The notes below the pieces were generated by a model. The model was given only the letters and a program-made list of their open reading frames with translations, was not told the origin of the DNA and searched no databases. Made by a program: the position numbers and the translations under genes. Positions 2,781 to 25,814 of a stretch of DNA of 48,180 nucleotides are shown here, piece by piece. Source of the DNA: Minisyncoccota bacterium (GTDB lineage: Bacteria; Patescibacteriota; Minisyncoccia; 2-02-FULL-40-12; GWA2-44-9). Location: contig CP129474.1 of NCBI GenBank assembly GCA_030583765.1, positions 471,168 through 519,347 on the forward strand, in the 5' to 3' direction. Within the stretch, counting starts at the first letter, position 1. The number at the start of each line of letters is the position of its first letter.

Positions 2781-4270
<1,490 letters not shown>

Positions 4271-6470: not shown

Positions 6471-7211
6471 CTACTTGATTTGATACGTGATCTGAACGTT
6501 TACGGAGATTTCATTCTCTCCGCCCGGGATTGCTGGACCACCACCACCCATGCCGTAGGCACGTTCCGACATAGCATCTTTATACATCGGCACTGGCATT
6601 CCAGCACCGCTTTCAGAGAAGTTCACGATGCGACCGAGTTTTACGCCAAGCTGGCGTTCCAGTGCGCGAGCTTTCTCTTTTGCATCCGCGATTGCTTCAT
6701 CACGCGCGTCAGCGAGAAGCTCTTCAGAATCATCTACGGTCAGTTGGAAGTTGTTGATCTGGTTTGCGCCAGCAGAAACAACGCCATCAAGAATGGTATC
6801 AACCGCATCAAGGTTGCGGACGCGGACCTGAATCATTTGGTTGACCTGGTATCCAGTGATGCGAGCCTTCTCATACTGGGGATATGTGTACTGCGGGTAG
6901 ATGTTATATCCCGTTGTCTTAATGTCTTTGTCTTCGATGCCTTCCTTTTTCAGGAACTCAACGAGACGCTTCGAGCGATTCGAGTTCTCATTCTGTGCCG
7001 CCTTTGACGTCTCTGCTTCCGTAAGAATAGAGAGATCAAGGAGTGCGATGTCTGGTTTGGCGACTACCTTGCCTTGGCCAGAGAACGAAATAGTGTTTGT
7101 GGTTGCTGCGGTGTTGGCTGCCTGATTGGTGCTTACCAAAAGGAACAGCGTGAGCGCCACAAGAACTGCCGAACCGAGCCAGAACAAGATGTTCTTTTGC
7201 TTTGGATCCAT
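6471..7211 (-). CDS. SIMPL/DUF541 family periplasmic protein
   Basis: N-terminal TM/signal segment, then GKVVAKPDIALLDLSI...YNIYPQY...YQVNQMIQVRV, typical of SIMPL (26-kDa periplasmic immunogenic protein) domains. Start taken at MDPKQK. Confidence 0.75.
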   Translation of the reverse strand: MDPKQKNILFWLGSAVLVALTLFLLVSTNQAANTAATTNTISFSGQGKVVAKPDIALLDLSILTEAETSKAAQNENSNRSKRLVEFLKKEGIEDKDIKTTGYNIYPQYTYPQYEKARITGYQVNQMIQVRVRNLDAVDTILDGVVSAGANQINNFQLTVDDSEELLADARDEAIADAKEKARALERQLGVKLGRIVNFSESGAGMPVPMYKDAMSERAYGMGGGGPAIPGGENEISVNVQITYQIK

Positions 7212-10714: not shown

Positions 10715-10968
10715 TGTTTCGAAGATATCGCGCATTTGTAGAGGCATTTGGATGGTACGGCGTTATCGCTGTGGTGCTTGCATATGCGATGCATAACGTG
10801 GGCGTATGGACCGCTCGCGACATTCCCTATGTCTTTCTCAACATTTCTGGAGGAATCGGTCTTATGATTGATAACTGGATGCACAAGGCGTACCAATCCA
10901 TGTCTGTAAATATTGTGTGGATCGTTGTTGGGTCATACGCTTTTTGGAACATTATTACCGGCGCATGA
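10714..10968 (+). CDS. Small 3-TM membrane protein
   Basis: 84 aa, hydrophobic, translationally coupled on both sides (TAATG upstream, ATGA downstream). Confidence 0.55.
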   Translation: MFRRYRAFVEAFGWYGVIAVVLAYAMHNVGVWTARDIPYVFLNISGGIGLMIDNWMHKAYQSMSVNIVWIVVGSYAFWNIITGA

Positions 10969-11825
10969 AGCATCTCCACGATGAAGATATAAAAAAGCTT
11001 GAAGTGATCGCGAATGATATTCGCCAGTCTATTATCGCGATGCTTGAAAGGGCAAAGAGTGGCCACACGGCAGGCCCGCTTGGTATGGCGGATATCTTCA
11101 CCGCATTTTATTTTCATATCTTAAACCACGACCCTGCGAATCCCGAGTGGGCGGAGCGCGACAGGCTCATCCTCTCCAATGGACACATCGTGCCGGTGCG
11201 TTACGCAGCGATGGCGCATGCCGGCTATTTTCCGAAAGAGGAGCTCATGACACTTCGAGCTTTTGGCTCGCGTCTGCAAGGACACCCAGAGCGCGAGCGA
11301 TTGCCCGGTGTGGAGACGACATCTGGTCCTTTGGGGTCCGGCCTTGGACAAGCTGCTGGAATCGCGCTTGCTGCGCGTATGGATGGCAAATCGTTTCGAA
11401 CCTACTGCCTCATGTCTGATGGCGAACAAGATGCGGGGGCTATCTGGGAATCAGCACTCTTTGCTGGTAAATATAAGCTAGCGAACCTTACCGGGGTTAT
11501 TGATCGGAATATGATCCAGATCGATGGCTCTACTGAAGTGGTTATGCCCCTTGAGTCATTGCGTGCAAAGTGGGAAGCATTCGGGTGGTATGTTCTTGAA
11601 TGTGATGGGCACAATTTCGCGGAGTTTATTAGCGCCATTGGGCAGGCGCACGCCGTTGTTGATCGGCCGACGCTGATCATTGCCCATACGATTCCTGGAA
11701 AAGGCGTCCCAGAAATCGAGTATGATTTTAAATGGCACGGGACGCCTCCAAATGCGGAGCAGGCGAAGCGATTTTTGCATGCGTTGCGTACGTTACACGG
11801 CAAAATTGTCAGTGAGCATGAGTAG
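10965..11825 (+). CDS. Transketolase, N-terminal (TPP-binding) subunit
   Basis: GHTAGPLGMADIF, SNGH, GSGLGQAAG and MSDGEQDAGAIWES motifs. Start taken at ATG 10965. Confidence 0.9.
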   Translation: MKHLHDEDIKKLEVIANDIRQSIIAMLERAKSGHTAGPLGMADIFTAFYFHILNHDPANPEWAERDRLILSNGHIVPVRYAAMAHAGYFPKEELMTLRAFGSRLQGHPERERLPGVETTSGPLGSGLGQAAGIALAARMDGKSFRTYCLMSDGEQDAGAIWESALFAGKYKLANLTGVIDRNMIQIDGSTEVVMPLESLRAKWEAFGWYVLECDGHNFAEFISAIGQAHAVVDRPTLIIAHTIPGKGVPEIEYDFKWHGTPPNAEQAKRFLHALRTLHGKIVSEHE

Positions 11826-11870
11826 TATGTGGTATGCTATGACTATGAACATCAGAAAGGGGGTGTCGGC

Positions 11871-12125
11871 ATGAAGCAATGTAATTGTGGTCACCACGCG
11901 CTGGCGCGCGTGATCCCTGCTTTGTCATGGGTGAGCGGTATCTTATTTTTCTGGGCTTCGTTTAGCGAAGGATTTGTATTTGGCTTTGACACCCAGTTTT
12001 ACTTTGAGGCGGCGGTTTTGCTCGTACTCTTGGGTATGGGTATGAGAGCGTGTGGATGCTGCTGTGAAAGTGGCTCGTGCGGGAAGATGATCTGTGGCTC
12101 GTGTGGCCCAGACGAGAAGCGCTAA
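11871..12125 (+). CDS. Small Cys-rich membrane protein
   Basis: 84 aa reading MKQCNCGHH, two TM segments, then a CGCCCESGSCGKMICGSCG tail. An SD-like aaggggg lies upstream. Confidence 0.5.
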   Translation: MKQCNCGHHALARVIPALSWVSGILFFWASFSEGFVFGFDTQFYFEAAVLLVLLGMGMRACGCCCESGSCGKMICGSCGPDEKR

Positions 12126-12172
12126 CCTATGGCGCCGGCCGCCTTTTGGGCGGCTCCGCAATAGGTGAGTGA

Positions 12173-13147
12173 TTGTATATGCTCGCAGATAACATAACAC
12201 AACGAGATGCACTACAGCAGATTCCTATCCGTGACGGCTACGGTCGCGGGTTGGTGCGCGCAGGAGAGGCCGACGAGCGCGTGGTGGTGTTGTGTGCAGA
12301 TCTTACTGAATCGACTAAGTCGCATTGGTTCGCGGAACGGTTTCCAGAAAGATTTATTCAAGTGGGTGTTGCAGAGCAGAATATGGCACTCGTTGCTGCT
12401 GGTATGGCTCAGTATGGGAAAATTCCATTTATTGCGTCATATGCAGCGTTTAGTCCTGGGCGCAATAACGAACAGATTCGCACGAATGCATGCCTCAATA
12501 ATGTGCCGGTAAAGATCGCGGGATCTCATGCGGGCATTTCTGTGGGCCCCGATGGAGCAACGCACCAAGCACTTGAAGATATTGGGCTCATGCGCATGAT
12601 CCCTCGCATGCAGGTGGTGGTACCATGCGATGCGTTTGAAGCAGAAAAGGCGACCATAGCTATTGCTCAGAATGGTGCCCCTTCATACATTCGCCTGGCA
12701 CGAGAAAAGACCCCCGTTTTCACGCTCCCTGACACACCGTTTGAGCTTGGCAAGGCGCTCGTCTTACGCGAAGGGCCTGATGTCGCCCTTATCGCGTGTG
12801 GTTCGCTTGTGTATGAAGCGCTTCTTGCCGCCGAGCAGCTTCAGAGAGAGGGTATTTCATGCACGGTAGTCAATAATCACACCGTGAAGCCTTTAGATAC
12901 AGAAACAATCAAGGCCGTTGCGCAGCGCTGTGGTGCGGTGGTCACTATAGAAGAGCATCAACGGGCGGGTGGCATGGGTTCTGCGGTTGCGGAATATCTG
13001 ATTCAACATGCACCCGTACCCTTAGCGTTTGTAGGCATGGCCGATTCGTTCGGGGAGTCGGGAGCTCCAGAAGAGCTTCTCAAACATTTTAGGCTTGATG
13101 CAGAGGGAATTATTGCGTCCGCCCGTGCGGTTTTGAAGAATAAATAG
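12173..13147 (+). CDS. Transketolase, C-terminal (pyrimidine-binding) subunit
   Basis: FIQVGVAEQNMALVAAGMA and GPDGATHQALEDIGLMR motifs. The start may be M3 at 12179. Confidence 0.9.
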   Translation: MYMLADNITQRDALQQIPIRDGYGRGLVRAGEADERVVVLCADLTESTKSHWFAERFPERFIQVGVAEQNMALVAAGMAQYGKIPFIASYAAFSPGRNNEQIRTNACLNNVPVKIAGSHAGISVGPDGATHQALEDIGLMRMIPRMQVVVPCDAFEAEKATIAIAQNGAPSYIRLAREKTPVFTLPDTPFELGKALVLREGPDVALIACGSLVYEALLAAEQLQREGISCTVVNNHTVKPLDTETIKAVAQRCGAVVTIEEHQRAGGMGSAVAEYLIQHAPVPLAFVGMADSFGESGAPEELLKHFRLDAEGIIASARAVLKNK

Positions 13148-16363: not shown

Positions 16364-16440
16364 AGCTTCTTAACTAGACATATTACATCATTTCTTTTAT
16401 TTTGGCAAGGTTTTCTGCGGCGTGCGTGATCTTGCGATAT

Positions 16441-16469
16441 TTGCGCAGAGTGCGCATGTCTGGTATGAT
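16441..16469 (+). promoter_or_regulatory. Candidate promoter of the tRNA cluster
   Basis: TTGCGC, a 17-nt spacer, then TATGAT, 26 nt upstream of the first tRNA-Ile sequence. Confidence 0.5.
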
Positions 16470-16494
16470 TTTCGTGCCTTTTTGGCGTCGGTTT

Positions 16495-16529
16495 GGGCGA
16501 TTAGTTCAGTGGTAGAACGCTGTCCTGAT
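16495..16529 (+). pseudogene. Extra copy of the tRNA-Ile(GAU) 5' half (acceptor to anticodon, 35 nt)
   Basis: GGGCGATTAGTTCAGTGGTAGAACGCTGTCCTGAT is identical to positions 1-36 of the complete gene at 16583. It diverges right after the anticodon. Confidence 0.85.
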
Positions 16530-16582
16530 CAAAGGCACTTTGTCACTGGTTCGTTCGGCTGTCATACAACCTTCTGTTTCGG

Positions 16583-16654
16583 GGGCGATTAGTTCAGTGG
16601 TAGAACGCTGTCCTGATAAGACAGAGGTCCTAGGTCCGATTCCTAGATCGCCCA
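16583..16654 (+). tRNA. tRNA-Ile (anticodon GAU), complete
   Basis: Manual cloverleaf: GGGCGAT/ATCGCCC acceptor, GTTC/GAAC D stem, CTGTC-CTGATAA-GACAG anticodon arm, CTAGG-TCCGATT-CCTAG T arm, discriminator A, no encoded CCA. Confidence 0.9.
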
Positions 16655-16684
16655 CATTCAGGTTGTATGCAGTCTCACTGCCAG

Positions 16685-16725
16685 TGATAAGACAGAGGTC
16701 CTAGGTCCGATTCCTAGATCGCCCA
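16685..16725 (+). pseudogene. Extra copy of the tRNA-Ile(GAU) 3' half (anticodon loop to 3' end, 41 nt)
   Basis: TGATAAGACAGAGGTCCTAGGTCCGATTCCTAGATCGCCCA is identical to the 3' part of the complete gene. It shares TGAT with the 5'-half copy. Confidence 0.85.
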
Positions 16726-16730
16726 CACGT

Positions 16731-16764
16731 AGTACATGATGTGCCTTGAGGCACATCATGTACT
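16731..16764 (+). other. Perfect 15-bp hairpin
   Basis: agtacatgatgtgcc-ttga-ggcacatcatgtact, with no T-run after it. Confidence 0.8.
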
Positions 16765-16777
16765 CGTAGCATTGGAA

Positions 16778-16889
16778 GATCTAGGAAGCGGACGCCGGAG
16801 CAATGCCCCGCAAGCTTGCGGGGCCGCGAGGCGGTGCCTAGCCCGAGACTTGCGGCGGCAAGTCGAGAGGCGAAGGAGATTCCTAGATC
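16778..16889 (+). repeat. GC-rich structured repeat, copy E1 (112 nt)
   Basis: Closed by GATCTAGGAA / TTCCTAGATC. Internal perfect hairpins are ccccgcaagcttgcgggg and gacttgc-ggcg-gcaagtc. It shares GCGGA.GC, CGCGAG, GCGGCGGC and GCGAAGGRGATTCC blocks with 38856-38964. Confidence 0.7.
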
Positions 16890-16894
16890 GCCCA
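16878..16894 (+). pseudogene. Third copy of the tRNA-Ile 3' end (T loop to discriminator, 17 nt)
   Basis: GATTCCTAGATCGCCCA followed by CA, as after the other two copies. Confidence 0.8.
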
Positions 16895-16905
16895 CAGATA
16901 GTGTT

Positions 16906-16978
16906 GGGCTCATAGCTCAGCTGGTAGAGCGCCTCATTTGCAATGAGGAGGTCACCGGTTCGAATCCGGTTGGGTCCA
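16906..16978 (+). tRNA. tRNA-Ala (anticodon UGC)
   Basis: Manual cloverleaf: GGGCTCA/TGGGTCC acceptor with the G3:U70 identity pair, CCTCA-TTTGCAA-TGAGG anticodon arm, ACCGG-TTCGAAT-CCGGT T arm. Confidence 0.92.
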
Positions 16979-17025
16979 CAAACCGTCCACTGACACTTCT
17001 TGTACTGCACACTGTGCGCAGTACA

Positions 17026-17445
17026 ATGAGGCGTATGGACATATCTTTAAACATCTGGGCAGTTGTTGGTGCCGCAGTTGCGTATGTGGCGTTGGGTGCG
17101 CTTTGGTATGGCCCGCTGTTTGGGAAAAAGTGGCGCATGCTCGCAGGAATTTCTGAAGCGGACATGTCGCGCATGCCCCTTACTCCTTGGCAGGCAATGG
17201 GCATGGGATTAGTGTCGGCCGGCATTATGGCGTATGTCCTCGGCGCGTTCATGCAGGTTTGGGGCGCCTTTAGTAGTGGCGACATCGTCAGGCTCGTTTT
17301 TTGGATTTGGATTGGCTTTATAGCCGTCGTGCACCTCGGGAGTTTTCTCTGGGAGGGAAAGCCCTTGAAGCTTTTTGTGCTGAACGCGTCGTATAGCTTC
17401 TTCGCGCTCTGGCTCATGGCGTGCATTTTGGGACGTTGGGCATAA
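17026..17445 (+). CDS. DUF1761-family membrane protein
   Basis: The LGALWYGPLFGKKW motif and 4 TM segments. The start is trimmed to ATG 17026 because the longer ORF runs through tRNA-Ala. Confidence 0.6.
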   Translation: MRRMDISLNIWAVVGAAVAYVALGALWYGPLFGKKWRMLAGISEADMSRMPLTPWQAMGMGLVSAGIMAYVLGAFMQVWGAFSSGDIVRLVFWIWIGFIAVVHLGSFLWEGKPLKLFVLNASYSFFALWLMACILGRWA

Positions 17446-18576: not shown

Positions 18577-20598
18577 ATGCTGTCCGCCATGGATATTCTT
18601 CAATTTTCGTTCCTGGCGTCCCTTGCGTCGCTGGGATATGGCGCCATACTCATTGCTGGCGTTTTAAAAAAGTCGGCAGGGAATGAGCGCATGCGAGATA
18701 TCGCCAATGCCATTCAAGAGGGAGCGGAGGCATATTTACGCCGCCAGAATATGACCGTTCTCGCGGTTGGGCTCGTGCTCATGCTCGTTTTAGGAACGTG
18801 GCTCGGCACCGCAATGGCCGCCTCGTTTGCGGTGGGCGCATTTGCGTCTGCACTCGCCGGCTACATTGGTATGATGGTTTCTGTACGTGCAAATGTGCGC
18901 GTTGCTGAAGAAGCTCGTCATGGAATTTCTCGGGCATTTGCTCTTGGATATAAGGGTGGGGCAGTAACCGGATTTTTCGTAGTTGGACTTGCTCTCCTCT
19001 CTTTAACGGCAGTATTTTGGGCTACGGGAAATGTAAAAGATCTCATCGGTCTCGGGTTTGGGGCGTCCCTTATTTCTGTTTTCGCACGACTTGGCGGCGG
19101 CATTTTTACAAAAGGCGCTGATGTTGGTGCGGATATTGTAGGAAAAGTTGAAGCAGGCATTCCAGAGGATGATCCGCGCAATCCAGCAGTGATCGCGGAC
19201 AACGTCGGTGACAACGTCGGTGACTGCGCTGGTATGGCTGCCGACCTTTTTGAGACCTATGTTGTCTCGGCGATCTCTGTCATGCTGTTGGCCCATCTTT
19301 TAGTGCCCGCTGCTCCGGCGCTCGTCTATGTGCCGCTTCTTATCGGCTCCGCCGCTGTTCTCGCCTCGCTTATCGGCTCCCTCTTTGTTCGCCTCTCTTC
19401 TGGAGGATCTATTATGGGTGCGTTGTACCGTGGCTTGGGCGTTGCCTCTTTGATTTCAGTGGCATTTTTCTGGTTTATCGCTCAAGGCATGGACGGCCTT
19501 TCTGAGCTCTCTTTCGCGATTGGCATGGAGGTTACCGCGCTTCAGGTGTTTTGGTGTATGGTAACAGGCATTGTGGTCACTGCGCTCATGATGATGATCA
19601 CGGAGTACTATACTTCAAAGAGCTTTTATCCTGTGCGCGCTATTGCGCACGCCTCGACAACGGGTCATGGCACGAATGTGATTATGGGTCTTGCTATGAG
19701 TAAGCAATCAACCGCGATGCCGCTCATCGTCATCGTAGCTGCTATGTATGGTGCCTATTCGCTTGCTGGTCTGTACGGTGTAGCGCTTGCAACAATGAGC
19801 ATGCTCTCTCTTGCGGGCATTGTGGTCGCTATTGATGCGTTTGGCCCTATCACCGACAATGCTGGTGGGATCGCAGAGATGGCGGAGCTTCCTGATGAGG
19901 TGCGTGACGTAACCGATCCGTTGGATGCTGTTGGCAACACTACTAAGGCGGTGACGAAAGGGTACGCGATTGCATCTGCTGGGCTTGCGGCAATTGTGTT
20001 GTTCGCTGCGTATACTCAAGAGCTTGCCGAGTTTGGACGCATTGTGCAGTTTGATCTATCCGATATCCGCGTGCTTGTCGGGCTCTTTATCGGAGGCATG
20101 ATGCCGTACTTGTTTGGCTCTATGGCCATGCAGTCTGTGAGTCGTGCGGGCTCTGCTATCGTTGATGAAGTGCGTCGTCAGTTCCGGGAAATCCCTGGTA
20201 TTATGGATCGCACCGCGATTCCAGAATATGGTGCTGCGGTAGACATCGTCACTCGTGCGGCAATCCGTGAAATGACACTCCCAGCACTTGTGCCCATAGT
20301 ATTTCCTATTGTGGTCGGCTTCACATTGGGTGCAGAGGCGCTCGGCGGTCTTCTCGTGGGCGTGATTATCACGGGCTTATTTGTTGCCATCTCAATGACT
20401 TCAGGCGGGGGCGCTTGGGATAACGCGAAGAAGTTTATTGAAGAAGGCAACCACGGTGGCAAGGGATCGGATGCCCACAAGGCAGCGGTCACGGGTGATA
20501 CGGTAGGAGATCCGTACAAAGATACCGCGGGCCCTGCGATCAACCCAATGATCAAGGTGGCAAACATCGTTGCTCTGCTCATTGCTCGGTTTATCTAA
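18577..20598 (+). CDS. hppA: Membrane-bound H+(or Na+)-translocating pyrophosphatase
   Basis: [31 protein letters not shown] and [18 protein letters not shown] motifs. About 16 TM segments. Confidence 0.93.
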
Positions 20599-20721
20599 AA
20601 TAAAAAGTGGCTACCCTCAGCATGGCTGTGGATAACCACATTTTTCGACCGCCTGCGGCGGAACTCAAGGATCAAGAAACCAACAGATCCAAGGGTTCAA
20701 GACCGCAAGGGTCGATTACTG

Positions 20722-21618
20722 CTACACGAAGCCCGAGACGGAACCGTAGTAGCCGTGCGCATAGTCGAACCAGTACGTGCCGAACTTGGCCTCGCCGTCG
20801 CTGAAGTAGAAGACCGGCGCGTGCGAGAAGCGGCCATCGCCGTCGGGATCGTCGAACTCGTCACCCGAGCAGTCCATGTCCAGCTCCTCCCAGCGAACGA
20901 GTCGCTCGGGGTGAACCAGCACGATGGAACCGACCGCGAGGCTGGTCAGACCGAACTCGTTCTGCACAAAGACCTCGCGCGCCCGGCGAACCGAACGACC
21001 GCGATGCCGAAGCCCCAGCTGTGCTGCGATGATCAGGATGTCGCCCGGCTGCTTCTCCGCGACGAGATCGAGCGCATGCGCCGTGCGAGCCGAAACTCGC
21101 AACTGCGCCGGCGTGATCTGGCCGTCACGGTAGTTGTAGAACGAACGCGACTCCCCGATCTTCGTGTGCACGAGCTGAACGGCCCGGCAGTACTTGTCGG
21201 CGGGATCGGTCACCTCCGGGAAGTACTTCACGGCGATGGCGTCCACCGAGGGAACCGCGAACCATCCTTCGGCTCCTTCGGGGAGCGCGGGCAGGTTCTT
21301 GGCGTACTCGAGCGCCTGGGTCGGATCGAGACCGAAGATCGTGGCGACTGCCTTGATCTGGTCGACGATCGGCTTCGGGCCCTTGTACTCCTTCGGGTAC
21401 GTGTAGCTGGAACGGACTTCCTCGTCGGCGTACCGATCGGACTGGGACAGCTCGGCGATGAGCTTGGCAATCCCGTCCTGCAGTTCGCCGCCGCGCTCGT
21501 TGAGCCGCTGTGCGCGGGAGTCATCGAGCTTGGACTTGTTGTACGCGGCCTCGAAGAGACCGGTTGCGTGGAGACCTTTCGGGTCTCTGCTGGTGATCAA
21601 TGTCTGTGACATCGTCAT
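20722..21618 (-). CDS. DGR target (variable) protein, no signal peptide, VR at the C-terminus
   Basis: 298-aa GC-rich ORF (about 60-65% GC in sampled lines). The last 42 codons are the VR. The SD AGGAGG abuts the first ATG, so the real start is probably M3 at 21612. Confidence 0.85.
   Translation of the reverse strand: MTMSQTLITSRDPKGLHATGLFEAAYNKSKLDDSRAQRLNERGGELQDGIAKLIAELSQSDRYADEEVRSSYTYPKEYKGPKPIVDQIKAVATIFGLDPTQALEYAKNLPALPEGAEGWFAVPSVDAIAVKYFPEVTDPADKYCRAVQLVHTKIGESRSFYNYRDGQITPAQLRVSARTAHALDLVAEKQPGDILIIAAQLGLRHRGRSVRRAREVFVQNEFGLTSLAVGSIVLVHPERLVRWEELDMDCSGDEFDDPDGDGRFSHAPVFYFSDGEAKFGTYWFDYAHGYYGSVSGFV
20724..20849 (-). repeat. DGR variable repeat (VR), 126 nt
   Basis: The reverse complement aligns with TR 22080-22205. 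There are 12 mismatches, all at TR adenines. It ends at the T of the target stop codon. Confidence 0.9.
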
Positions 21619-22079
21619 CCTCCTTCTTCGTTGAATTACCCGAACCGCTCGGGCGAGCGTCTTGCCTCAACATGAGACGAGCACGATAGGTACAAGAGGT
21701 CTTTTACCCATTGTGCTCGGCTCAAATAAGGCCTTTTCAAAGAACTAACTTTGACGCTTAAGTATAGCAAAAATAAGCGGTTTTGTCAAGAATGGAACCT
21801 GTCCCCTTCTATGCTGTATAATATGCTTGAGCTTAGGCTAATGTACAGCCGTCCACGGATTGCTGTCGCCGAACTCTATCATTTCAACGATAACAACCAG
21901 AGTCCCGGAGACTACGGTTTCCGCGAGCGTGTTGTGTTGAGGAGATACTGCTTGCTTTCGCCTAGTGCAGGTTCCTTACCGGATGCTGCCGAATTAAATT
22001 CAGGACTGAGAGAATATAGGTCTGTTTCCAACAGGCAGTAAATCTCAAGGTTCGGTGCCACGGATGGGTGGAAGCAATT

Positions 22080-22205
22080 ATCCCGACGACGATGACCGCT
22101 TCTCGCACGCGCCGATCTTCAACTTCAACGACGGCAAGGCCAAGTTCGACACGAACTGGTTCGACAATGCGAACGACAACTACGGTTCCGTCTCGGGCTT
22201 CGTGT
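22080..22205 (+). repeat. DGR template repeat (TR), 126 nt
   Basis: It has adenines at all 12 positions that differ from VR, is rich in AAC/GAC codons, and is not part of a credible gene. Confidence 0.9.
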
Positions 22206-22223
22206 CGAAGTCTCTCCAAGACA

Positions 22224-22252
22224 GAAAGGGTATCCATTTTGGATACCCTTTC
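22224..22252. terminator. 13-bp hairpin between TR and the avd 3' end (terminator-like on the + strand)
   Basis: gaaagggtatcca-ttt-tggataccctttc is followed on the + strand by T-rich gtttattcggctttgatt. It lies 19 nt after the TR and 3 nt from the avd stop. Confidence 0.6.
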
Positions 22253-22254
22253 GT

Positions 22255-22605
22255 TTATTCGGCTTTGATTGAGCGTATCCACCCGCCCAACATTCGGCCT
22301 ATCTCATCTATTGGTGCTTCAAGCGCAATGTACTTCTTATTGTCTATGGTTTTCACATCCTTCATGAGTCGGATAAACATGCGAAGCATATTGAGTTTGA
22401 GGCTGGCACGTTCAAGTGTTGGGAGTTTTTTCTCCCGGTGCTCTCCGCTCGCCTGCATGATTGCTTCCAACACATCGAGTATCGCGCACTCGCATCGTTC
22501 GAAGACCGTGAAGCGATCTTGTTTGGGTACGAGTTTCCGGTACTGATTGAAGGTTTTGTACAAGTCGTAAGACTTTTTGAAGATTGGTATATCGAATTCG
22601 TTCAT
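22255..22605 (-). CDS. avd: DGR accessory variability determinant (Avd-like four-helix-bundle protein)
   Basis: 116 aa. IPIFKKSYDLYKTFNQYRKLVPKQDRFTVFERCECAILDVLEAIMQA matches the S23-IVS/four-helix-bundle pattern of Avd proteins. Confidence 0.8.
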   Translation of the reverse strand: MNEFDIPIFKKSYDLYKTFNQYRKLVPKQDRFTVFERCECAILDVLEAIMQASGEHREKKLPTLERASLKLNMLRMFIRLMKDVKTIDNKKYIALEAPIDEIGRMLGGWIRSIKAE

Positions 22606-22609
22606 AGTT

Positions 22610-23659
22610 ATGAAGGTTTATAAGAATCTATTTCAACAAATCGTCTCGCTAGAAAACCTATTCACGGCATGGGAAGAATTTCGAGCTGATAAGCGGCACA
22701 AAGAAGATGTCCAGGAGCTTGAATTTAATGTGGAGCAAAATCTTTTTGCGCTTTATCGAGAGCTGGTCTCGAAAAAGTACACTCACAAGCCGTATTTTGG
22801 CTTCTATATTCGTGACCCTAAGGTGCGACATATCCATAAGGCCACGGCCCGGGATCGGGTTTTGCATCATGCGGTGTTCCGCATTTTGAACCCGCTTTTC
22901 GACAGGACTTTTATCCCCACTTCCTTTTCTTGTCGGGTTGGTAAGGGATCGCATAAAGGAGTTATGGCATTGGAACAAATGATTAGGGCTGAGAGCAGGA
23001 ATTTCACTCGGCCGTGTTTTGTCCTGAAGTGCGACGTGCAAAAGTTTTTTGATTCGATTGATCACCAAACCCTTCTGGCCATTCTTCGTAAAAAAATAGC
23101 CGACATGGACACCATGTGGCTGATGGAAAGAATTATTGAAAGCTTTTCGACCGGACGGACTACCTTGTTCGACCGCCAAGGTGTGCCGATTGGCAATCTC
23201 ACCTCCCAGCTCTTCGCCAACGTGTACATGAATGAGTTTGATCAGTTCGTCAAACAACAATTGCGAATCAAACACTATGCCCGCTACACGGATGATTTCG
23301 TGATCGTCTCCACCGATAAAAAAGAGCTGACGAATTTGCTTGATCCTATACAGCAATTTCTCGGTGGCTGTCTGAAGCTGAAACTCCACCCCAAGAAAAT
23401 ATCTATTCGCCCCTGTCATCAAGGCATCGATTTTCTTGGTTATGTGGCCTTGCCTTACCATCGGCTGATGCGCCCCAAAACAAGGCGTCGAGTATTCCGC
23501 AAATTGAGAATACGGATTTCCCAATACCGGGCCGGAGCGATCAGCGAGGACGCTCTTTCCCAGTCTCTGCAATCTTATTTGGGTGTGCTCTCTCATGCGA
23601 ATACTCATCAACTGAGCGAGAACCTAAAGAACCAGTTTTGGTTTTGGCTGCATATGTAA
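22610..23659 (+). CDS. DGR reverse transcriptase
   Basis: FDSIDH (motif 3), PIGNLTSQLFANVYMNEFD (the DGR-diagnostic SQ motif) and YTDDFVIV (YxDD). An alternative TTG start lies at 22577. Confidence 0.9.
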   Translation: MKVYKNLFQQIVSLENLFTAWEEFRADKRHKEDVQELEFNVEQNLFALYRELVSKKYTHKPYFGFYIRDPKVRHIHKATARDRVLHHAVFRILNPLFDRTFIPTSFSCRVGKGSHKGVMALEQMIRAESRNFTRPCFVLKCDVQKFFDSIDHQTLLAILRKKIADMDTMWLMERIIESFSTGRTTLFDRQGVPIGNLTSQLFANVYMNEFDQFVKQQLRIKHYARYTDDFVIVSTDKKELTNLLDPIQQFLGGCLKLKLHPKKISIRPCHQGIDFLGYVALPYHRLMRPKTRRRVFRKLRIRISQYRAGAISEDALSQSLQSYLGVLSHANTHQLSENLKNQFWFWLHM

Positions 23660-23709
23660 CATTCTCCACACTCATTCCGTGCTCTTAGTGGTACAATGAA
23701 AGCATCTTT

Positions 23710-24441
23710 ATGCCTGACCTCGCGAAAGTGCGAGACATCATGACGACCAAAGTATTGACGGTCGGCTCTGATGACACGCTCGAAGTTGCTACAAAATTAT
23801 TCGAACAGTATGACTATGACGGTATTCCTGTCATAGATAACCAACGCAAACTCGTTGGTATTATCACTGCATATGACATGGTCGTGCAGAGCTCAGGTAT
23901 GCACTTGCCGACCCTTATGGAAATTATGCGCCAGATGTCAGCGAATAAGGCGGATAAAAAGGACATCGATGAACACTTTACTAAATTGCGGCAGATAAAA
24001 ATAAAAGAGGTGATGAATACGCAGCCCTTAGTGGTGGGGCCTGACCTGAGTATCGAAGAGCTCGCTCGCGTGTTTGCAGAGCATCACCGAGTAAATCCTA
24101 TTCCCGTCGTTGATGATCAAGGCATTCTCGTCGGTCTTTTAAGTCGCTACGATATCATTAGGTTTTTCAACGAACGTTATTTCCAACAAGTAGTGGGCGA
24201 GGTGAGCACGGTGCGTGGCGGAAAGGGAGCCCCGGAGGCTATCAACGCGACAGTTCAAGACATCTCGAAGGAGTTTCTCATTGTGAATCGTCGCCGGCCC
24301 CGTATTTGGAAATATGCGGCAATTGGAGCTTTTATTGCTGGACTTGTGGTGGCGACCGCTATGATTATTCGGATCGTGCGGGACGAAGAAACCGTATTCA
24401 TGCCCCGTACCATTGCGGTTGTGATATCAACATTACGCTAA
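23710..24441 (+). CDS. CBS-pair domain protein with C-terminal TM anchor
   Basis: Two CBS repeats (IMTTKVLTV...GIPVIDNQRKLVGIIT and VMNTQPLVV...PIPVVDDQGILVGLLS), then a hydrophobic helix. Confidence 0.75.
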   Translation: MPDLAKVRDIMTTKVLTVGSDDTLEVATKLFEQYDYDGIPVIDNQRKLVGIITAYDMVVQSSGMHLPTLMEIMRQMSANKADKKDIDEHFTKLRQIKIKEVMNTQPLVVGPDLSIEELARVFAEHHRVNPIPVVDDQGILVGLLSRYDIIRFFNERYFQQVVGEVSTVRGGKGAPEAINATVQDISKEFLIVNRRRPRIWKYAAIGAFIAGLVVATAMIIRIVRDEETVFMPRTIAVVISTLR

Positions 24442-24502
24442 CGTTATTTTATACACAAACGCTATACTACAAGCGTGAGATACATCAGAAAGGGGGTGCG
24501 AA

Positions 24503-25183
24503 ATGATTGAAACATCAGCTCCGGATATTGTCCGAGCATCGCTTCTGACGCTCTGGTCGGGTGTGGCCGGTTTTACGCCGCGCCTTATCGCCGCCATTAT
24601 CGTGTTCGTTGTTGGGTGGCTCGTCGCATCACTTCTTGGTAAGGTGGCGTTCCACATTGTACGCGTGTTGCATCTCGATGCAGCGCTCTCCCGCGTTGGA
24701 TTCCGTCAAGCATGGGAGCGAAGCGGTTTTCGCCTCAATAGTCCGGTATTTTTTTCTGATCTTGTCCGCTGGTTCTTTGTTGTCGTGTTTCTTATGGCGT
24801 CAACGAACATCCTGGGCCTTGATCAGGTGAGCCGATTCCTTGAGACTGTCGTTCTCTACATACCAAACGTTATCGTAGCGACGGTCATTCTCTTGATCGG
24901 TATCTTGGTTGCAAAGTTCTTGGAGAATGCGGTTCGTGCATCCGTGCGTGCAGCGGGGCTCGCATCCGGGAATTTCCTTGGTTCGCTAACAAAGTGGGCG
25001 GTATTCACGTTCTCTCTCCTTATTGCGCTAGTGCAATTGCGAGTAGCAGAAGATATTATCCGCATTGTTATTATTGGCCTTGTGGCAGCAGTGTCACTGG
25101 CGATCGGGTTATCCTTTGGTCTTGGTGGCGTCAAGCATGCTGAAGAGATGGTGGCATCGCTTCGTCGACGCATTGAGGACTAG
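24503..25183 (+). CDS. Membrane protein with conserved-TM-helix repeats (MscS-related N-terminal type)
   Basis: Four or five TM segments with repeated IxxIIVxxVGxLVA-like helices. Family call is tentative. Confidence 0.5.
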   Translation: MIETSAPDIVRASLLTLWSGVAGFTPRLIAAIIVFVVGWLVASLLGKVAFHIVRVLHLDAALSRVGFRQAWERSGFRLNSPVFFSDLVRWFFVVVFLMASTNILGLDQVSRFLETVVLYIPNVIVATVILLIGILVAKFLENAVRASVRAAGLASGNFLGSLTKWAVFTFSLLIALVQLRVAEDIIRIVIIGLVAAVSLAIGLSFGLGGVKHAEEMVASLRRRIED

Positions 25184-25194
25184 CGTCCGAACGC

Positions 25195-25230
25195 ATAACA
25201 AAGAGCGCCCATATGGGCGCTCTTTGTTAT
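25195..25230. terminator. Bidirectional terminator between convergent genes
   Basis: ataacaaagagcgccc-atat-gggcgctctttgttat forms a 16-bp stem. It overlaps the pth stop codon. Confidence 0.75.
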
Positions 25231-25814
25231 CGGACGGCAAGTGGGGTTGATGCTAATTTTTTCCAAATACTTGCGTGTACGTGAGTGAGCTTCGTGCGTT
25301 CTGTGGGTGAGAATTTTTTTAGTACAAATGTTTTGATCGCCTCATCTTTTACGCGAGCGGTTTGTGAGTGGGCTTTTACAACGGCACGCGTGGCTGTACC
25401 AACGCGTACTCTCCAAAACTTCTTGGTCTTCAGAGCGCGCATAACACTCTCTACGCCTTTATGACCTCCCGAGTTCTTATCAAATGAGACCTTGCCACCA
25501 CCAAAGGGAATATCGAGGTCATCGTGTGCGATAAGGATGTGCTCTGGCTTGATGCGGAGTCGTTCGGCAATGGCCTTCACAGGTTTTCCGCTCTCATTCA
25601 TAAAGCATGTTGGGAGAAAAAAGTGTGCCTTGTAGCGGGCAGATCCAATGGTGAGTGTCCCTGTTGCTTCCATGCCCTGAGGCCCCTCTTCCCACGCCGA
25701 AGCGCCCTCGTGGCGCGCAAGCCATCGCGTCCACAGCTCTCCTGCATTATGGCGCGTGTTGGCATATTCTTCGTCAGCATTCCTGAGTCCTATGACAAGC
25801 AGTGTGGGTATCAT
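25227..25814 (-). CDS. pth: Peptidyl-tRNA hydrolase
   Basis: YANTRHNAG, HDDLDIPFG and GGHKGVESV motifs. Confidence 0.9.
   Translation of the reverse strand: MIPTLLVIGLRNADEEYANTRHNAGELWTRWLARHEGASAWEEGPQGMEATGTLTIGSARYKAHFFLPTCFMNESGKPVKAIAERLRIKPEHILIAHDDLDIPFGGGKVSFDKNSGGHKGVESVMRALKTKKFWRVRVGTATRAVVKAHSQTARVKDEAIKTFVLKKFSPTERTKLTHVHASIWKKLASTPLAVR

Follow-up and report, generated by a model that had tools for sequence, protein, structure and literature searches.

A tRNA-Ile(GAU) gene enclosed by the two halves of a second copy of itself: a recurrent architecture in CPR bacteria

The stretch of DNA analysed here (48,180 nucleotides, "the window") comes from a bacterium of the Patescibacteria (CPR) and contains a full tRNA-Ile gene with one half of an identical second copy on either side. 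The nested structure is a conserved architecture, inherited and recurrent in CPR bacteria, and not a private scar. The most likely origin, to which we give roughly even odds (about 0.5), is that a cassette of ~155 bp, made of a tRNA-Ile gene and complementary arms, split a resident gene at its anticodon loop and replaced it functionally, leaving the outer halves as relics. We did not find the arrangement described in the literature on tRNA introns, split tRNAs or nested tRNAs in Patescibacteria/CPR.

ARAGORN and Rfam detect a single complete tRNA-Ile(GAU) in the locus (16583-16654/5, 70.9 bits) and a tRNA-Ala(UGC) further downstream. The outer 5' half is made of 35 nt that are 100% identical to tRNA-Ile positions 1-35 (16583-16617), and the outer 3' half of 43 nt that are 100% identical to 16614-16656, the 3' part of the gene plus CA; the last 17 nt of tRNA-Ile, also followed by CA, are repeated at 16878-16896. 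The direct repeats in the locus thus measure 35 bp (88 bp apart) and 43 bp (71 bp apart). If up to 3 mismatches are allowed, the 17-mer is expected 0.13 times by chance in the 48-kb window and was found 5 times, 3 of them exact; for the 5' 24-mer the chance expectation is 0 per window, and 2 copies were observed. A first-pass annotation, made from the sequence alone, had described the halves, the full gene and the 17-nt fragment, and all its coordinates and identities were confirmed by ARAGORN, Rfam and repeat comparison; it had overlooked that the tRNA 3' end also recurs in inverted, degenerate form (16773-16793, 18/21). The exact TGAT overlap that it reported between the outer halves holds in the window's clade but is not a general feature, as the breakpoints of other lineages differ, with A35, T36 or A37 as the last base of the 5' piece and T36 as the first base of the 3' piece.

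The motif TGGTATGAT, upstream of the outer 5' half, is unchanged in two sister species (L012 and L014) although adjacent bases vary, and TGnTAnnnT-like motifs are found 15-35 nt 5' of the outer 5' half in L050, L036, L094, L055 and L103. A promoter consensus scan did not call TGGTATGAT because a -35 element is missing. We consider it likely that TGGTATGAT is the promoter that drives both the old (outer) gene and the entire unit. The hairpin that follows tRNA-Ala is a possible end of the transcription unit. Feature coordinates are collected in Table 1, where P1 and P2 are the helices that the two spacers can form and E2 is a second insert.

Table 1. Features of the nested tRNA-Ile(GAU) locus, in window coordinates.
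Feature	Position	Strand	Remarks
Extended -10-like motif TGGTATGAT	16461..16469	+	Read from sequence; candidate promoter of outer gene and whole unit
Outer 5' half	16495..16529	+	Acceptor 5' strand, D arm, anticodon-stem 5' strand, CTGAT of loop
Spacer 1	16530..16582	+	P1 5' arm 16541-16549; GGTTCGTTCGG motif 16548-16558; P2 5' arm 16563-16572 (inverted repeats I8, I11)
Inner complete tRNA-Ile(GAU)	16583..16654	+	ARAGORN, Rfam; taken as working gene
Spacer 2	16655..16684	+	P2 3' arm 16660-16669; CTCACTG motif 16674-16680
P1 3' arm	16681-16689	+	Extends 2-5 nt into outer 3' half
Outer 3' half	16685..16727	+	TGATAA of anticodon loop to discriminator A (16685-16725), then CA
Second insert E2	16728..16877	+	Palindrome arms 16705-16746 / 16749-16793 (repeats I1-I3); conserved structured core 16790-16877
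E2 right-hand direct repeat	16878..16896	+	17-nt copy of tRNA 3' end (T loop to discriminator), then CA
tRNA-Ala(UGC)	16906..16978	+	ARAGORN, Rfam; downstream member of tRNA-Ile unit
Hairpin 3' of tRNA-Ala	17000..17026	+	Inverted repeat I5, 13 nt, 92%; T run absent; putative terminator

An assembly artefact, with repeats collapsed or chimeric, was a concern raised by the first-pass annotation; such an artefact, or one of binning, now has next to no chance of being the explanation. Assemblies built with k=31 do break at the 35- and 43-nt repeats: four Logan contigs from four samples all end at 16524, with precisely 30 nt of the 35-nt repeat covered, and a further contig begins at 16698, 30 nt short of the end of the 43-nt repeat, its 150-nt stretch being identical. 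These break points are, however, exactly those expected if reads of several samples hold both contexts of each repeat, and the repeats are shorter than the reads. Independent MAGs from two other species have an identical nested layout, and many contigs from unrelated metagenome studies show the same architecture with diverged spacers. Break points and MAGs together exclude the artefact for practical purposes; a corollary is that k-mer assemblers break CPR contigs at the nested tRNA-Ile locus.

Comparison with sister genomes, which the first-pass annotation had proposed, showed the window's nested layout in L012 and L014, two further species whose UDG is 91-93% identical; in both, tRNA-Ala lies directly 3' of the outer 3' half. 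The inner tRNA-Ile is 72/72 identical in L012, L014, L017 and L141. Three syntenic relatives (L017, L138 and L139) have one clean tRNA-Ile, and because deletion between direct repeats is scarless, gain and loss of nesting are not polarised by this contrast. In a wider sample of CPR tRNA-Ile(GAU) loci, 13 of 125 (~10%) are nested on both sides, two additional loci are cut off by contig ends, and others retain a 5' leftover alone or a 3' leftover alone. Every interrupted copy encloses a complete tRNA: the anticodon loop is interrupted without an inner tRNA in 0 of the 125 loci, as expected if the interruption cannot be spliced out.

Some of the nested loci hold two different tRNAs. The outer acceptor stem is unlike the inner one in L025 and L052 (GGGCACA/TGTGCCC), L128 (GAGTGTG/CACACTC) and L101 (GGGTGTG/CACACCC), and its two strands pair 7/7; the outer tRNA of L101 has its own anticodon stem too. 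These four loci speak for the insertion of a different tRNA-Ile into a resident gene. The same 72-nt tRNA-Ile is present where UDG is only 50-52% identical (L017 and L141), while a different tRNA-Ile is found in L138, with a UDG 57% identical, and in L141 the 5', promoter-proximal part of an older tRNA-Ile, unlike the present one, is retained directly upstream. This pattern and the leftover of L141 look like signs of gene replacement.

The sequences of the two spacers were also examined. Complementarity is 10/10 between CATACAACCT and AGGTTGTATG, and 9/10 plus one G-T between TTGTCACTGG and CCAGTGATAA. That the spacer arms can pair, as claimed in the first-pass annotation, is shown by compensatory changes, and P1, the junction-proximal helix, covaries about as well as a real acceptor stem: its 9 pairs are 94% paired with compensatory change at 4 of them, and the acceptor stem used as control changes at 5/7 pairs. 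Slid controls of P1 are paired at 49% or less, and its covariation score was reached by 0/500 shuffles. P2 shows two compensatory changes within the window's clade. The leader-trailer duplex has a z-score of -5.3 in 12 nested loci against -0.18 in 101 non-nested loci, so that such pairing is restricted to nested loci and was rejected as a general trait of CPR tRNA-Ile genes. Nine nested loci share the GGTTCGTTCGG motif, and lineages whose helices changed completely have still conserved the loop motifs GGTTCGYTC and CTCRCTG. P1 is intact in L088 and L105 despite decayed outer halves.

The predicted fold of the transcript has the nested topology (MFE -98.8 kcal/mol, z = -4.6), and the proposal that the outer ends are brought together around the inner tRNA is borne out in it. 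P1 would stack on the outer anticodon stem, and P1 and P2 would form an arm stem of ~25 bp with internal loops. When the P1 and P2 pairs are enforced, refolding of the full double cloverleaf gives -90.4 kcal/mol.

E2, a 169-bp insert made of a stretch of ~150-152 nt and the 17-nt fragment, is present in the window species, while the same site is empty in both sister species. It is identical in Logan contig L005, and its core has a homologue in L088, in an insert that follows tRNA-Ala (nhmmer E = 1.3e-12). By these comparisons E2 is an insert in its own right, specific to the species and belonging to a second conserved family. The T-loop breakpoint assigned to the 17-nt fragment by the first-pass annotation fits this picture, as the fragment and the 152-nt spacer behave as a small att-type duplication absent in two sister species. 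E2 is strongly structured (fold z = -7.9), with a long palindrome that takes in the tRNA 3' end; in the predicted fold, its antisense segment base-pairs with the T arm of the outer 3' half and thereby opens that arm. The sequence that abuts the 17-nt fragment on its left, GCGAAGGA, is similar to the 5' strand of the T stem in other tRNA-Ile genes of CPR bacteria.

The outer halves are conserved in some lineages and decayed in others. Among the window species and its two sisters, the outer 5' half shows 0/35 differences and the outer 3' half 0/41, hence 0/76 in all three species pairs, while the surrounding non-coding DNA is 11-30% different. By our own arithmetic, P is ~1e-6 at the pooled non-coding rate, and either frequent gene conversion or selection is required. 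Gene conversion is not open to the outer 3' half shared by L025 and L052, because it is unlike the inner tRNA; it is 37/38 identical between the two loci, with flanks nearly saturated. Outer halves are, however, degenerate, truncated or interrupted in L036, L088, L105, L052 and L136. In L042 the 5' half has been lost and the relic 3' half still matches the inner copy at 37/38 positions, so a half need not be functional to stay nearly identical. With a spacing of only 88 and 71 bp, the 35-bp and 43-bp direct repeats should be prone to deletion, as such repeats generally are, and the nested arrangement has been kept in three species despite them. Altogether, the perfectly conserved outer halves leave room for a role at the RNA level.

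The history that we place at even odds would start with a resident tRNA-Ile(GAU) at the UDG / tRNA-Ile / tRNA-Ala locus of a Patescibacteria lineage. An insert of ~155 bp, carrying a complete tRNA-Ile(GAU) gene between two mutually complementary arms, would have entered through the anticodon loop. The old promoter would then drive one transcript for the whole unit, in the order old 5' half, arm, new tRNA, arm, old 3' half, E2 (in the window species) and tRNA-Ala. The inner gene would be the working tRNA-Ile, freed by RNase P and a 3' endonuclease. The stem formed by P1 and P2 may shut the inner tRNA off from the redundant halves, so that the outer 5' half does not mispair with the inner 3' half, and may also be an RNase III-type substrate. 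The outer halves would be co-transcribed relics, held identical to the inner copy by gene conversion, and recombination at the 35-bp or the 43-bp direct repeats would delete one side per event, giving rise to relatives with a 5'-only leftover, a 3'-only leftover or a clean gene. Breakpoints are always found in tRNA loops (D, anticodon, variable or T), which points to a process that reads a folded or symmetric tRNA gene.

Several observations count against this history. Neither a recombinase nor a transposase was found within the 48-kb window or next to eight further nested loci, and IMG/VR holds neither an un-nested cassette junction nor a copy of the tRNA-Ile body. The view of the outer halves as relics sits uneasily with their 0/76 changes, with the 37/38 identity between L025 and L052 where conversion is impossible, and with the retention of a deletion-prone arrangement in three species. 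P1, moreover, takes in two bases of the outer 3' half, stacks on the outer anticodon stem and is kept in L088 and L105, whose outer halves have decayed, and the loop motifs are conserved across lineages.

The locus might instead have been shaped by ordinary integrases: successive full-size elements (one in the anticodon loop, one in the T loop and one carrying a 5' part) would have entered tRNA-Ile, each later shrinking to 30-150 bp. We regard this as improbable. Williams is said to have distinguished, in 2002, sublocation classes of integration within tRNA genes, and the first-pass annotation had compared the breakpoints with the crossover sites of tRNA-targeting integrases; the 43-nt and 19-nt 3' repeats do start in the anticodon and T loops, but no integrase or element body accompanies them in the 48-kb window. 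Islands and prophages that use tyrosine integrases leave displaced tRNA-gene fragments, attL and attR (Islander, PMC4383910; PMC9897764), and the locus resembles such scars in having partial tRNA copies beside a complete gene, with the 3' half and the 17-nt fragment running from the anticodon or T loop to the 3' end plus 2 nt. The resemblance extends to presence or absence between close relatives for E2 only, as the nested halves occur in all three species, and to GCGAAGGA, which looks like an element-derived core arm. The intervals between gene and fragments are, on the other hand, of 30 and 152 nt, the "elements" of 30-155 bp lack an integrase while those of islands measure 9-100 kb, and function is restored by a whole inner tRNA and not by a matching 3' part. 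Integration that restores the 3' part does not displace a 5' half, and we agree with the earlier remark that the 35-nt 5' half, duplicated with a whole tRNA inside, is not a product of simple integration. Mutually pairing, covarying spacers would also have to be left by three independent deletions, and the small sizes and homologous spacers recur in many lineages. Identity between spacer junctions and tRNA (2-4 nt) is too short for the overlap of a tyrosine recombinase, and is ambiguous as a target-site duplication.

Direct searches for an element gave a similar outcome. No integrase, recombinase, transposase or homing endonuclease is encoded in the large ORFs of the 48-kb window or in the neighbourhood of eight further nested loci, and the element with a matching att core that the first-pass annotation suggested looking for did not turn up there or in viral contigs. 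A phage or plasmid attP matching the tRNA 3' end was rejected, as the three 17-mer matches in IMG/VR all lie within coding sequence, without tRNA context; the 5'-half 25-mer and a 28-nt tRNA body had no match in IMG/VR. A degenerate pattern for the junction of a free cassette (end of spacer 2 joined to start of spacer 1) gave 14 IMG/VR matches, none with complementary arms or a nearby tRNA, and these are chance matches. A MITE or IS-type transposon was also rejected: the inverted repeats are internal and differ between lineages, and the spacers and E2 are single-copy, since apart from orthologues and the E2 of L088 neither the window nor a set of 137 loci contains a second one.

Explanations at the RNA level deserve separate consideration, since a single transcript might yield a second tRNA-Ile or a tRNA-like RNA. 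RNase P and RNase Z would excise the inner tRNA, and the outer halves, clamped by P1 and P2, would be joined or persist as a two-piece molecule; we think this improbable. The favoured nested fold, a covarying P1 that abuts the outer anticodon stem and the unchanged 76 nt in three species are in its favour. The same can be said of L025, L128 and L101, whose outer tRNAs differ from the inner ones and keep all stems paired, of the L025/L052 half with its saturated flanks, and of the fact that insertions lie in loops only. Archaea provide a parallel in the tRNA halves of Nanoarchaeum equitans, tri-split tRNAs and BHB introns (PMC4390854, PMC4033280). As in those, the break lies beside the anticodon, and complementary sequences after the 5' half and before the 3' half (here P1 and P2) would unite the halves. 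Here, however, the host is bacterial, both halves lie in cis, what separates them is itself a whole tRNA-Ile, and outer halves are decaying in many lineages (~5/13 nested loci). A combinatorial search for BHB (3-4-3) motifs in 13 loci found none in L055, L105, L088, L025, L052 and L024; the remaining nested loci gave weak matches only, with 2-bp flanks and away from the junctions, while the positive control was found. No BHB is thus consistently present at the junctions. Bacteria are not known to have a tRNA splicing endonuclease, and EndA-like or RtcB-like proteins are absent among the annotated ORFs of the 48-kb window. RNase P and RNase Z ends are expected at the inner tRNA, not at the half junctions; no cargo-less interruption of the anticodon loop was seen among the 125 loci; and the E2 antisense segment of the window is predicted to unfold the T arm of the outer 3' half.

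Other RNA systems offer partial analogies. Like bacterial tRNA genes with group I introns, which are abundant in metagenomic unnamed phyla, the gene is broken in the anticodon loop, but the covariance model Intron_gpI detects no core in 16380-17060 up to E 10, and the ~83 nt of non-tRNA sequence are well under any known group I intron. In Rfam 15 only tRNA models match; small ribozymes do not, and the spacers and E2 give hairpin-like chance matches alone. The joining of outer halves implied by the first-pass annotation is thus left without BHB, group I core or known ribozyme, and all interrupted copies enclose a complete tRNA. In bacterial rRNA intervening sequences and in two-piece (permuted) tmRNA, a helical insert is excised without re-ligation and the pieces stay base-paired, so that bacteria offer a precedent for structural RNAs with such inserts. 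There, however, the fragmented RNA is functional, while a tRNA opened in the anticodon loop could not decode. The archaeal pre-tRNA-Trp intron encodes a C/D box sRNA, and BHB endonuclease removes the intron before the exons are ligated; it likewise nests a functional RNA gene within the intervening sequence of a tRNA, but its cargo is a guide RNA and not a second copy of the host tRNA. A bolder speculation, which we hold to be very doubtful, is that CPR bacteria have their own unrecognised maturation of interrupted tRNAs, a counterpart of split tRNAs without BHB. The tRNA-carrying bacterial "intron" would release clamped halves that are trimmed and joined, or remain in two pieces, and one promoter would yield two tRNA-Ile. 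Were splicing to occur, the joined RNA of L025 would read GGGCACA...CCUGA + UAAGACAG...UGUGCCCA; in the window species, inner and joined-outer products would be identical in sequence.

The outer halves might also be maintained without decoding. A tRNA-like shell together with P1 and P2 could have been selected to fold, process, stabilise or regulate the precursor of tRNA-Ile (and tRNA-Ala), or could yield a by-product with a role of its own. This scaffold is an unlikely explanation, albeit one that draws on the same conservation as splicing (0/76; 37/38 in L025/L052), on loop motifs kept where helices have wholly changed, on P1 and P2 retained where outer halves decayed, and on the persistence of deletion-prone repeats. 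Against it, 101 non-nested CPR loci manage without leader-trailer pairing, the gene is clean in close syntenic relatives, there is no match to a known RNA family, and the existence of 5'-only and 3'-only derivatives indicates that neither side is essential.

A DGR reverse transcriptase is encoded nearby; in the region examined (19500-25500) there was no template/variable repeat pair and no tRNA-related repeat, and no link with the nested locus was found.

Disrupted tRNA genes (intron-containing, split and permuted) are central to the debate on tRNA evolution and have so far been largely archaeal or eukaryotic. What is new here is a bacterial gene interrupted by a complete copy of itself, recurrent in CPR and with a clamp backed by covariation. 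If the cassette history is true, a tiny DNA segment invades an essential single-copy gene in a self-compensating manner, breaking and replacing it at once, and the spread of identical tRNA genes among distant CPR genomes is explained as well. If an RNA-level explanation is true, bacteria possess a hitherto unrecognised route of tRNA maturation. On the practical side, tRNA finders report the inner gene alone, and island finders would take the halves for att sites.

The first-pass annotation had described two tRNA halves and a 17-nt end fragment around a full tRNA-Ile(GAU) gene, and this layout was borne out: all are exact copies of the window's single complete tRNA-Ile, and a degenerate inverted copy of its 3' end can be added to that description. 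When a 17-mer of the tRNA 3' end was searched with up to three mismatches, five matches were found versus 0.13 expected from shuffles, and the 5' 24-mer gave two matches versus none expected. The spacers are also mutually complementary, as had been claimed (CATACAACCT/AGGTTGTATG, 10/10; TTGTCACTGG/CCAGTGATAA, 9/10 plus a G-T). Position 55 of the tRNA-Ile is C, not the near-universal U; the GGTCCGATTCC T loop is common to many of the tRNA-Ile genes sampled in CPR (Patescibacteria), and others have the usual GGTTCGATTCC.

Features of the tRNA-Ile locus and other parts of the window (window positions)
Feature	Position	Strand	Remarks
16S rRNA gene	2784-4267
Transketolase	10917-13147		N-terminal and C-terminal parts are separate genes
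Outer 5' half	16495-16529	+	Exact copy of tRNA-Ile first 35 nt
Complete tRNA-Ile(GAU)	16583-16654	+	ARAGORN; Rfam tRNA, 70.9 bits
T loop of tRNA-Ile	16636-16642		TCCGATT
Outer 3' half	16685-16727	+	Exact copy of tRNA-Ile last 41 nt plus CA
Palindrome containing tRNA 3' end	16705-16746 and 16749-16793		Closed by left part of E2
E2 (second insert)	16728-16896		152-nt stretch plus 17-nt fragment; bounded by 19-nt direct repeats
Degenerate inverted copy of tRNA-Ile 3' end	16773-16793		18/21 matching
17-nt fragment	16878-16896	+	Copy of tRNA-Ile last 17 nt plus CA
tRNA-Ala(UGC)	16906-16978	+	ARAGORN/Rfam
Avd-like ORF and reverse transcriptase (RVT_1)	22255-23659	- (Avd-like ORF)	Low-GC patch (0.46)

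The nested layout is not an assembly artefact. Four Logan contigs (k = 31) from the UDG side (UDG being the gene left of the locus), assembled from four samples, all stop at 16524, 30 nt into the 35-nt repeat, where a de Bruijn unitig must end if the reads contain that repeat in two left contexts. A right-hand contig from another run starts at 16698, with the last 30 nt of the 43-nt repeat, and its next 150 nt are identical to the window. Since both repeats are shorter than a read, their order is resolved by a normal assembler.

A scan of species-representative genomes with the tRNA-Ile 3' 18-mer gave four true matches. Two of them, L012 and L014, are other species (UDG 91% and 93% identical to that of the window) with the same order: 5' half, 53-nt spacer, full gene, 33- or 30-nt spacer and 3' half, tRNA-Ala following directly. 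L017, with UDG 50% identical and left-hand synteny kept, has a single clean tRNA-Ile, identical over 72 nt, and L013, a Saccharibacteria MAG, has one tRNA-Ile adjoining tRNA-Ala, with no additional half copy. When differences were counted pairwise by segment across the three nested species, the outer halves showed 0/76 in every pair, compared with 2-6/53 in spacer 1, 2-6/30 in spacer 2, 16-23 in about 130 nt of upstream intergenic sequence and 11-14 in about 47 nt after tRNA-Ala. By our own arithmetic, zero changes in 76 nt has a chance of about 1e-6 at the pooled non-coding rate (45/269, window versus L014).

The arrangement is not confined to this clade. A metagenome scan with a 21-mer of the tRNA body, common to many CPR lineages whose acceptor stems differ, gave at least 120 matches, and 125 loci were classified. 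Among the matches listed, 13 loci are nested on both sides (the window, L012, L014, L055, L050, L105, L088, L036, L025, L052, L128, L136 and L101) and 2 are nested but truncated by a contig end (L094, L103). Others have a 5' leftover only (L059, L024, L119, L124, L134, L029, L075, L045) or a 3' leftover only (L042, L091, L058, L106, L120, L100; in L042, spacer 2 and the 3' half remain and the promoter lies directly on the gene), as would be expected of recombination between direct repeats, and about 95 have a clean tRNA-Ile. No anticodon-loop-interrupted copy lacking a complete inner tRNA-Ile was found among the listed matches of the 125 loci, nor was a description of the nested arrangement in the literature searched.

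In L025, L052, L128 and L101 the acceptor stem of the outer tRNA is unlike that of the inner one, and in L101 the anticodon stem differs too. Because the outer acceptor strands nevertheless pair 7/7 in each, the outer halves must derive from one tRNA-Ile gene, unlike the inner one, that was once intact. Elsewhere (L036, L088, L105, L052, L136) they are degenerate, truncated or further interrupted. Breakpoints always fall in tRNA loops among the matches listed: the hairpin of L050 is in the variable loop, E2-type inserts are in the T loop, and L101 is broken in the D loop, not the anticodon loop. In L101 (oriented, ~3440-3680), CTTGCCCCGCC, a complete tRNA-Ile and GGCGGGGTGAA interrupt a different, otherwise intact tRNA-Ile after GTAGTTCAG; these hairpin ends recur in L024, where no tRNA lies between them, and L134 and L029 are listed with this D-loop observation.

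Type 1 loci carry NNNNNGG and then a conserved GGTTCG(C/T)TC in spacer 1, and their spacer 2 ends in CTC(G/A)CTG-CC-NNNNN, followed by T36 and A37 of the outer 3' half. The junction-proximal helix formed by the spacers, P1, has 9 bp and is 94% paired in an eight-lineage alignment, with four pairs changing on both sides (5/7 in the inner acceptor stem, used as positive control); slid controls reached at most 49% pairing, and 0/500 shuffles attained the covariation score. The second helix, P2, has two compensatory changes inside the clade of the window, L012 and L014. Leader-trailer duplex energy versus shuffled flanks had a mean z of -5.3 in nested loci (n = 12) but -0.18 in non-nested ones (n = 101). 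Pairing of this kind is therefore a property of the nested unit, not a processing signal shared by CPR at large. Folding of 16485-16735 is predicted to give the nested topology (-98.8 kcal/mol, z = -4.6), and when every pair of the double cloverleaf plus P1/P2 was enforced, the refold came to -90.4 kcal/mol.

The locus is most economically explained by a small cassette, made up of a tRNA-Ile gene and complementary arms, inserted in a resident tRNA-Ile gene. Such a cassette would enter the anticodon loop of the resident gene and take over its function; the old promoter would drive the inserted tRNA-Ile, and the outer halves would stay as co-transcribed relics. Cassette insertion would explain the different and the decayed outer halves, the full tRNA in every interruption, why arms pair in nested loci only, the derivatives with just a 5' or just a 3' leftover and the non-tree-like spread of an identical tRNA. 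It does not account for the movement of the cassette: no recombinase was found in the window or beside eight other nested loci, and no free cassette form in IMG/VR. The account would also require gene conversion to keep the outer halves perfect, and it is hard to square with the conservation of the outer 3' half in L025 and L052 and of the loop motifs. These last three points keep two RNA-level readings alive: that the outer parts are a maintained processing scaffold, which we regard as unlikely, and that the outer halves are truly joined, which seems distinctly improbable.

An integrase or element with a matching att core, for which the first-pass annotation had suggested a search, was not found: the genes of the window include no integrase, recombinase or transposase, and IMG/VR contained neither an att core match nor a copy of this tRNA body, nor a free junction of spacer 2 with spacer 1. 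The spacers are single-copy, and housekeeping genes (DprA, pseudouridine synthase, transketolase, RF, methylases) flank the eight other nested loci. Island integration, the paradigm for displaced tRNA fragments (PMC4383910, PMC9897764), resembles the locus in its 3' fragments; however, the 5' half, the sizes and the covarying spacers do not fit. Only tRNA families match the locus in Rfam at E up to 10, so a detectable group I core and the known small ribozymes are excluded, and a direct search for a bulge-helix-bulge motif found nothing consistent at the junctions.

E2 is an event separate from nesting; L012 and L014 lack both its 152-nt stretch and its 17-nt fragment at the same position. It folds strongly (z = -7.9), and has no Rfam match and no ORF. 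Its core (GCCGGAGCA...CGCGAGGCGGTGSCTAGCCCGAG...GAGAGGCGAAGG) has a homologue (nhmmer E = 1.3e-12) in an insert that follows tRNA-Ala in L088 (oriented, ~6985-7125); the antisense and sense flanks there correspond to tRNA-Ala (T arm and 3' end), not to tRNA-Ile. Weaker relatives lie downstream of tRNA-Ile in L100, L106 and L036. The E2-type insert is a conserved, structured unit of ~100-150 nt at tRNA 3' ends, bracketed by antisense and sense copies of the host tRNA T arm/3' end. GCGAAGGA, directly left of the 17-nt fragment, is similar to the 5' strand of the T stem in other tRNA-Ile genes of CPR, the appearance expected of a core arm derived from an element after crossover in the T loop. E2 could belong to a family of miniature elements that target the T loop, or it could be an RNA of unknown kind. 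An integrase-like reading is the best available for E2, although no recombinase accompanies this conserved miniature "element".

The window clade shares its 72-nt tRNA-Ile with L017 and L141 (UDG 50-52% identical), whereas at the syntenic site of L138 (UDG 57%) and L139 (UDG 52%) the tRNA-Ile genes are clearly different, a sequence pattern that suggests horizontal replacement. Just upstream of its current gene, L141 retains part of a different tRNA-Ile (GGGCGCG...), namely its promoter-proximal 5' portion, with a two-hairpin D-loop insert. L025 (oriented, 2650-2770) has a third, more degenerate 5' half and spacer start upstream of the outer one, and L052 (oriented, ~1880-2020) has a 90-nt insert in the D loop of its outer 5' half that includes an acceptor-stem-only remnant (GGGCGATTAC...AATCGCCC) of a window-type tRNA-Ile. 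With an identical gene in distant genomes and these remnants and layers, the locus looks like a palimpsest of successive tRNA-Ile genes. The two-hairpin insert (CCCCGACG...CGTCGGGG AGCCGA...TCGGCT) occurs in the D loop of partial tRNA-Ile copies in L141 (1330-1400, minus strand), L075 and L077, and is conserved in three lineages with compensatory changes. The public ENA contig L139 ends in an untrimmed Illumina adapter (1-40, GATCGGAAGAGCACACGTCTGAACTCCAGTCAC).

The window is a segment of a Patescibacteria chromosome; UDG protein homologues with a source name are labelled Candidatus Paceibacterota. Its protein genes are housekeeping only (RNase HII, GAPDH, split transketolase, H+-PPase, RmuC, FtsA/Z, RNR, ribosomal proteins, EF-G/Tu). 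The 16S rRNA gene lies 12 kb from the tRNA-Ile/tRNA-Ala pair, with housekeeping genes between, and is not linked to it; no 23S gene occurs in the following 31 kb, and the rRNA genes are unlinked. The Avd-like ORF adjoins the 349-360-aa reverse transcriptase, arranged as in a diversity-generating retroelement; a search of 19500-25500 found no pair of template and variable repeats. The first transketolase gene is overlapped at its start by a small ORF that the Logan gene calls describe as CBU_0592-like.
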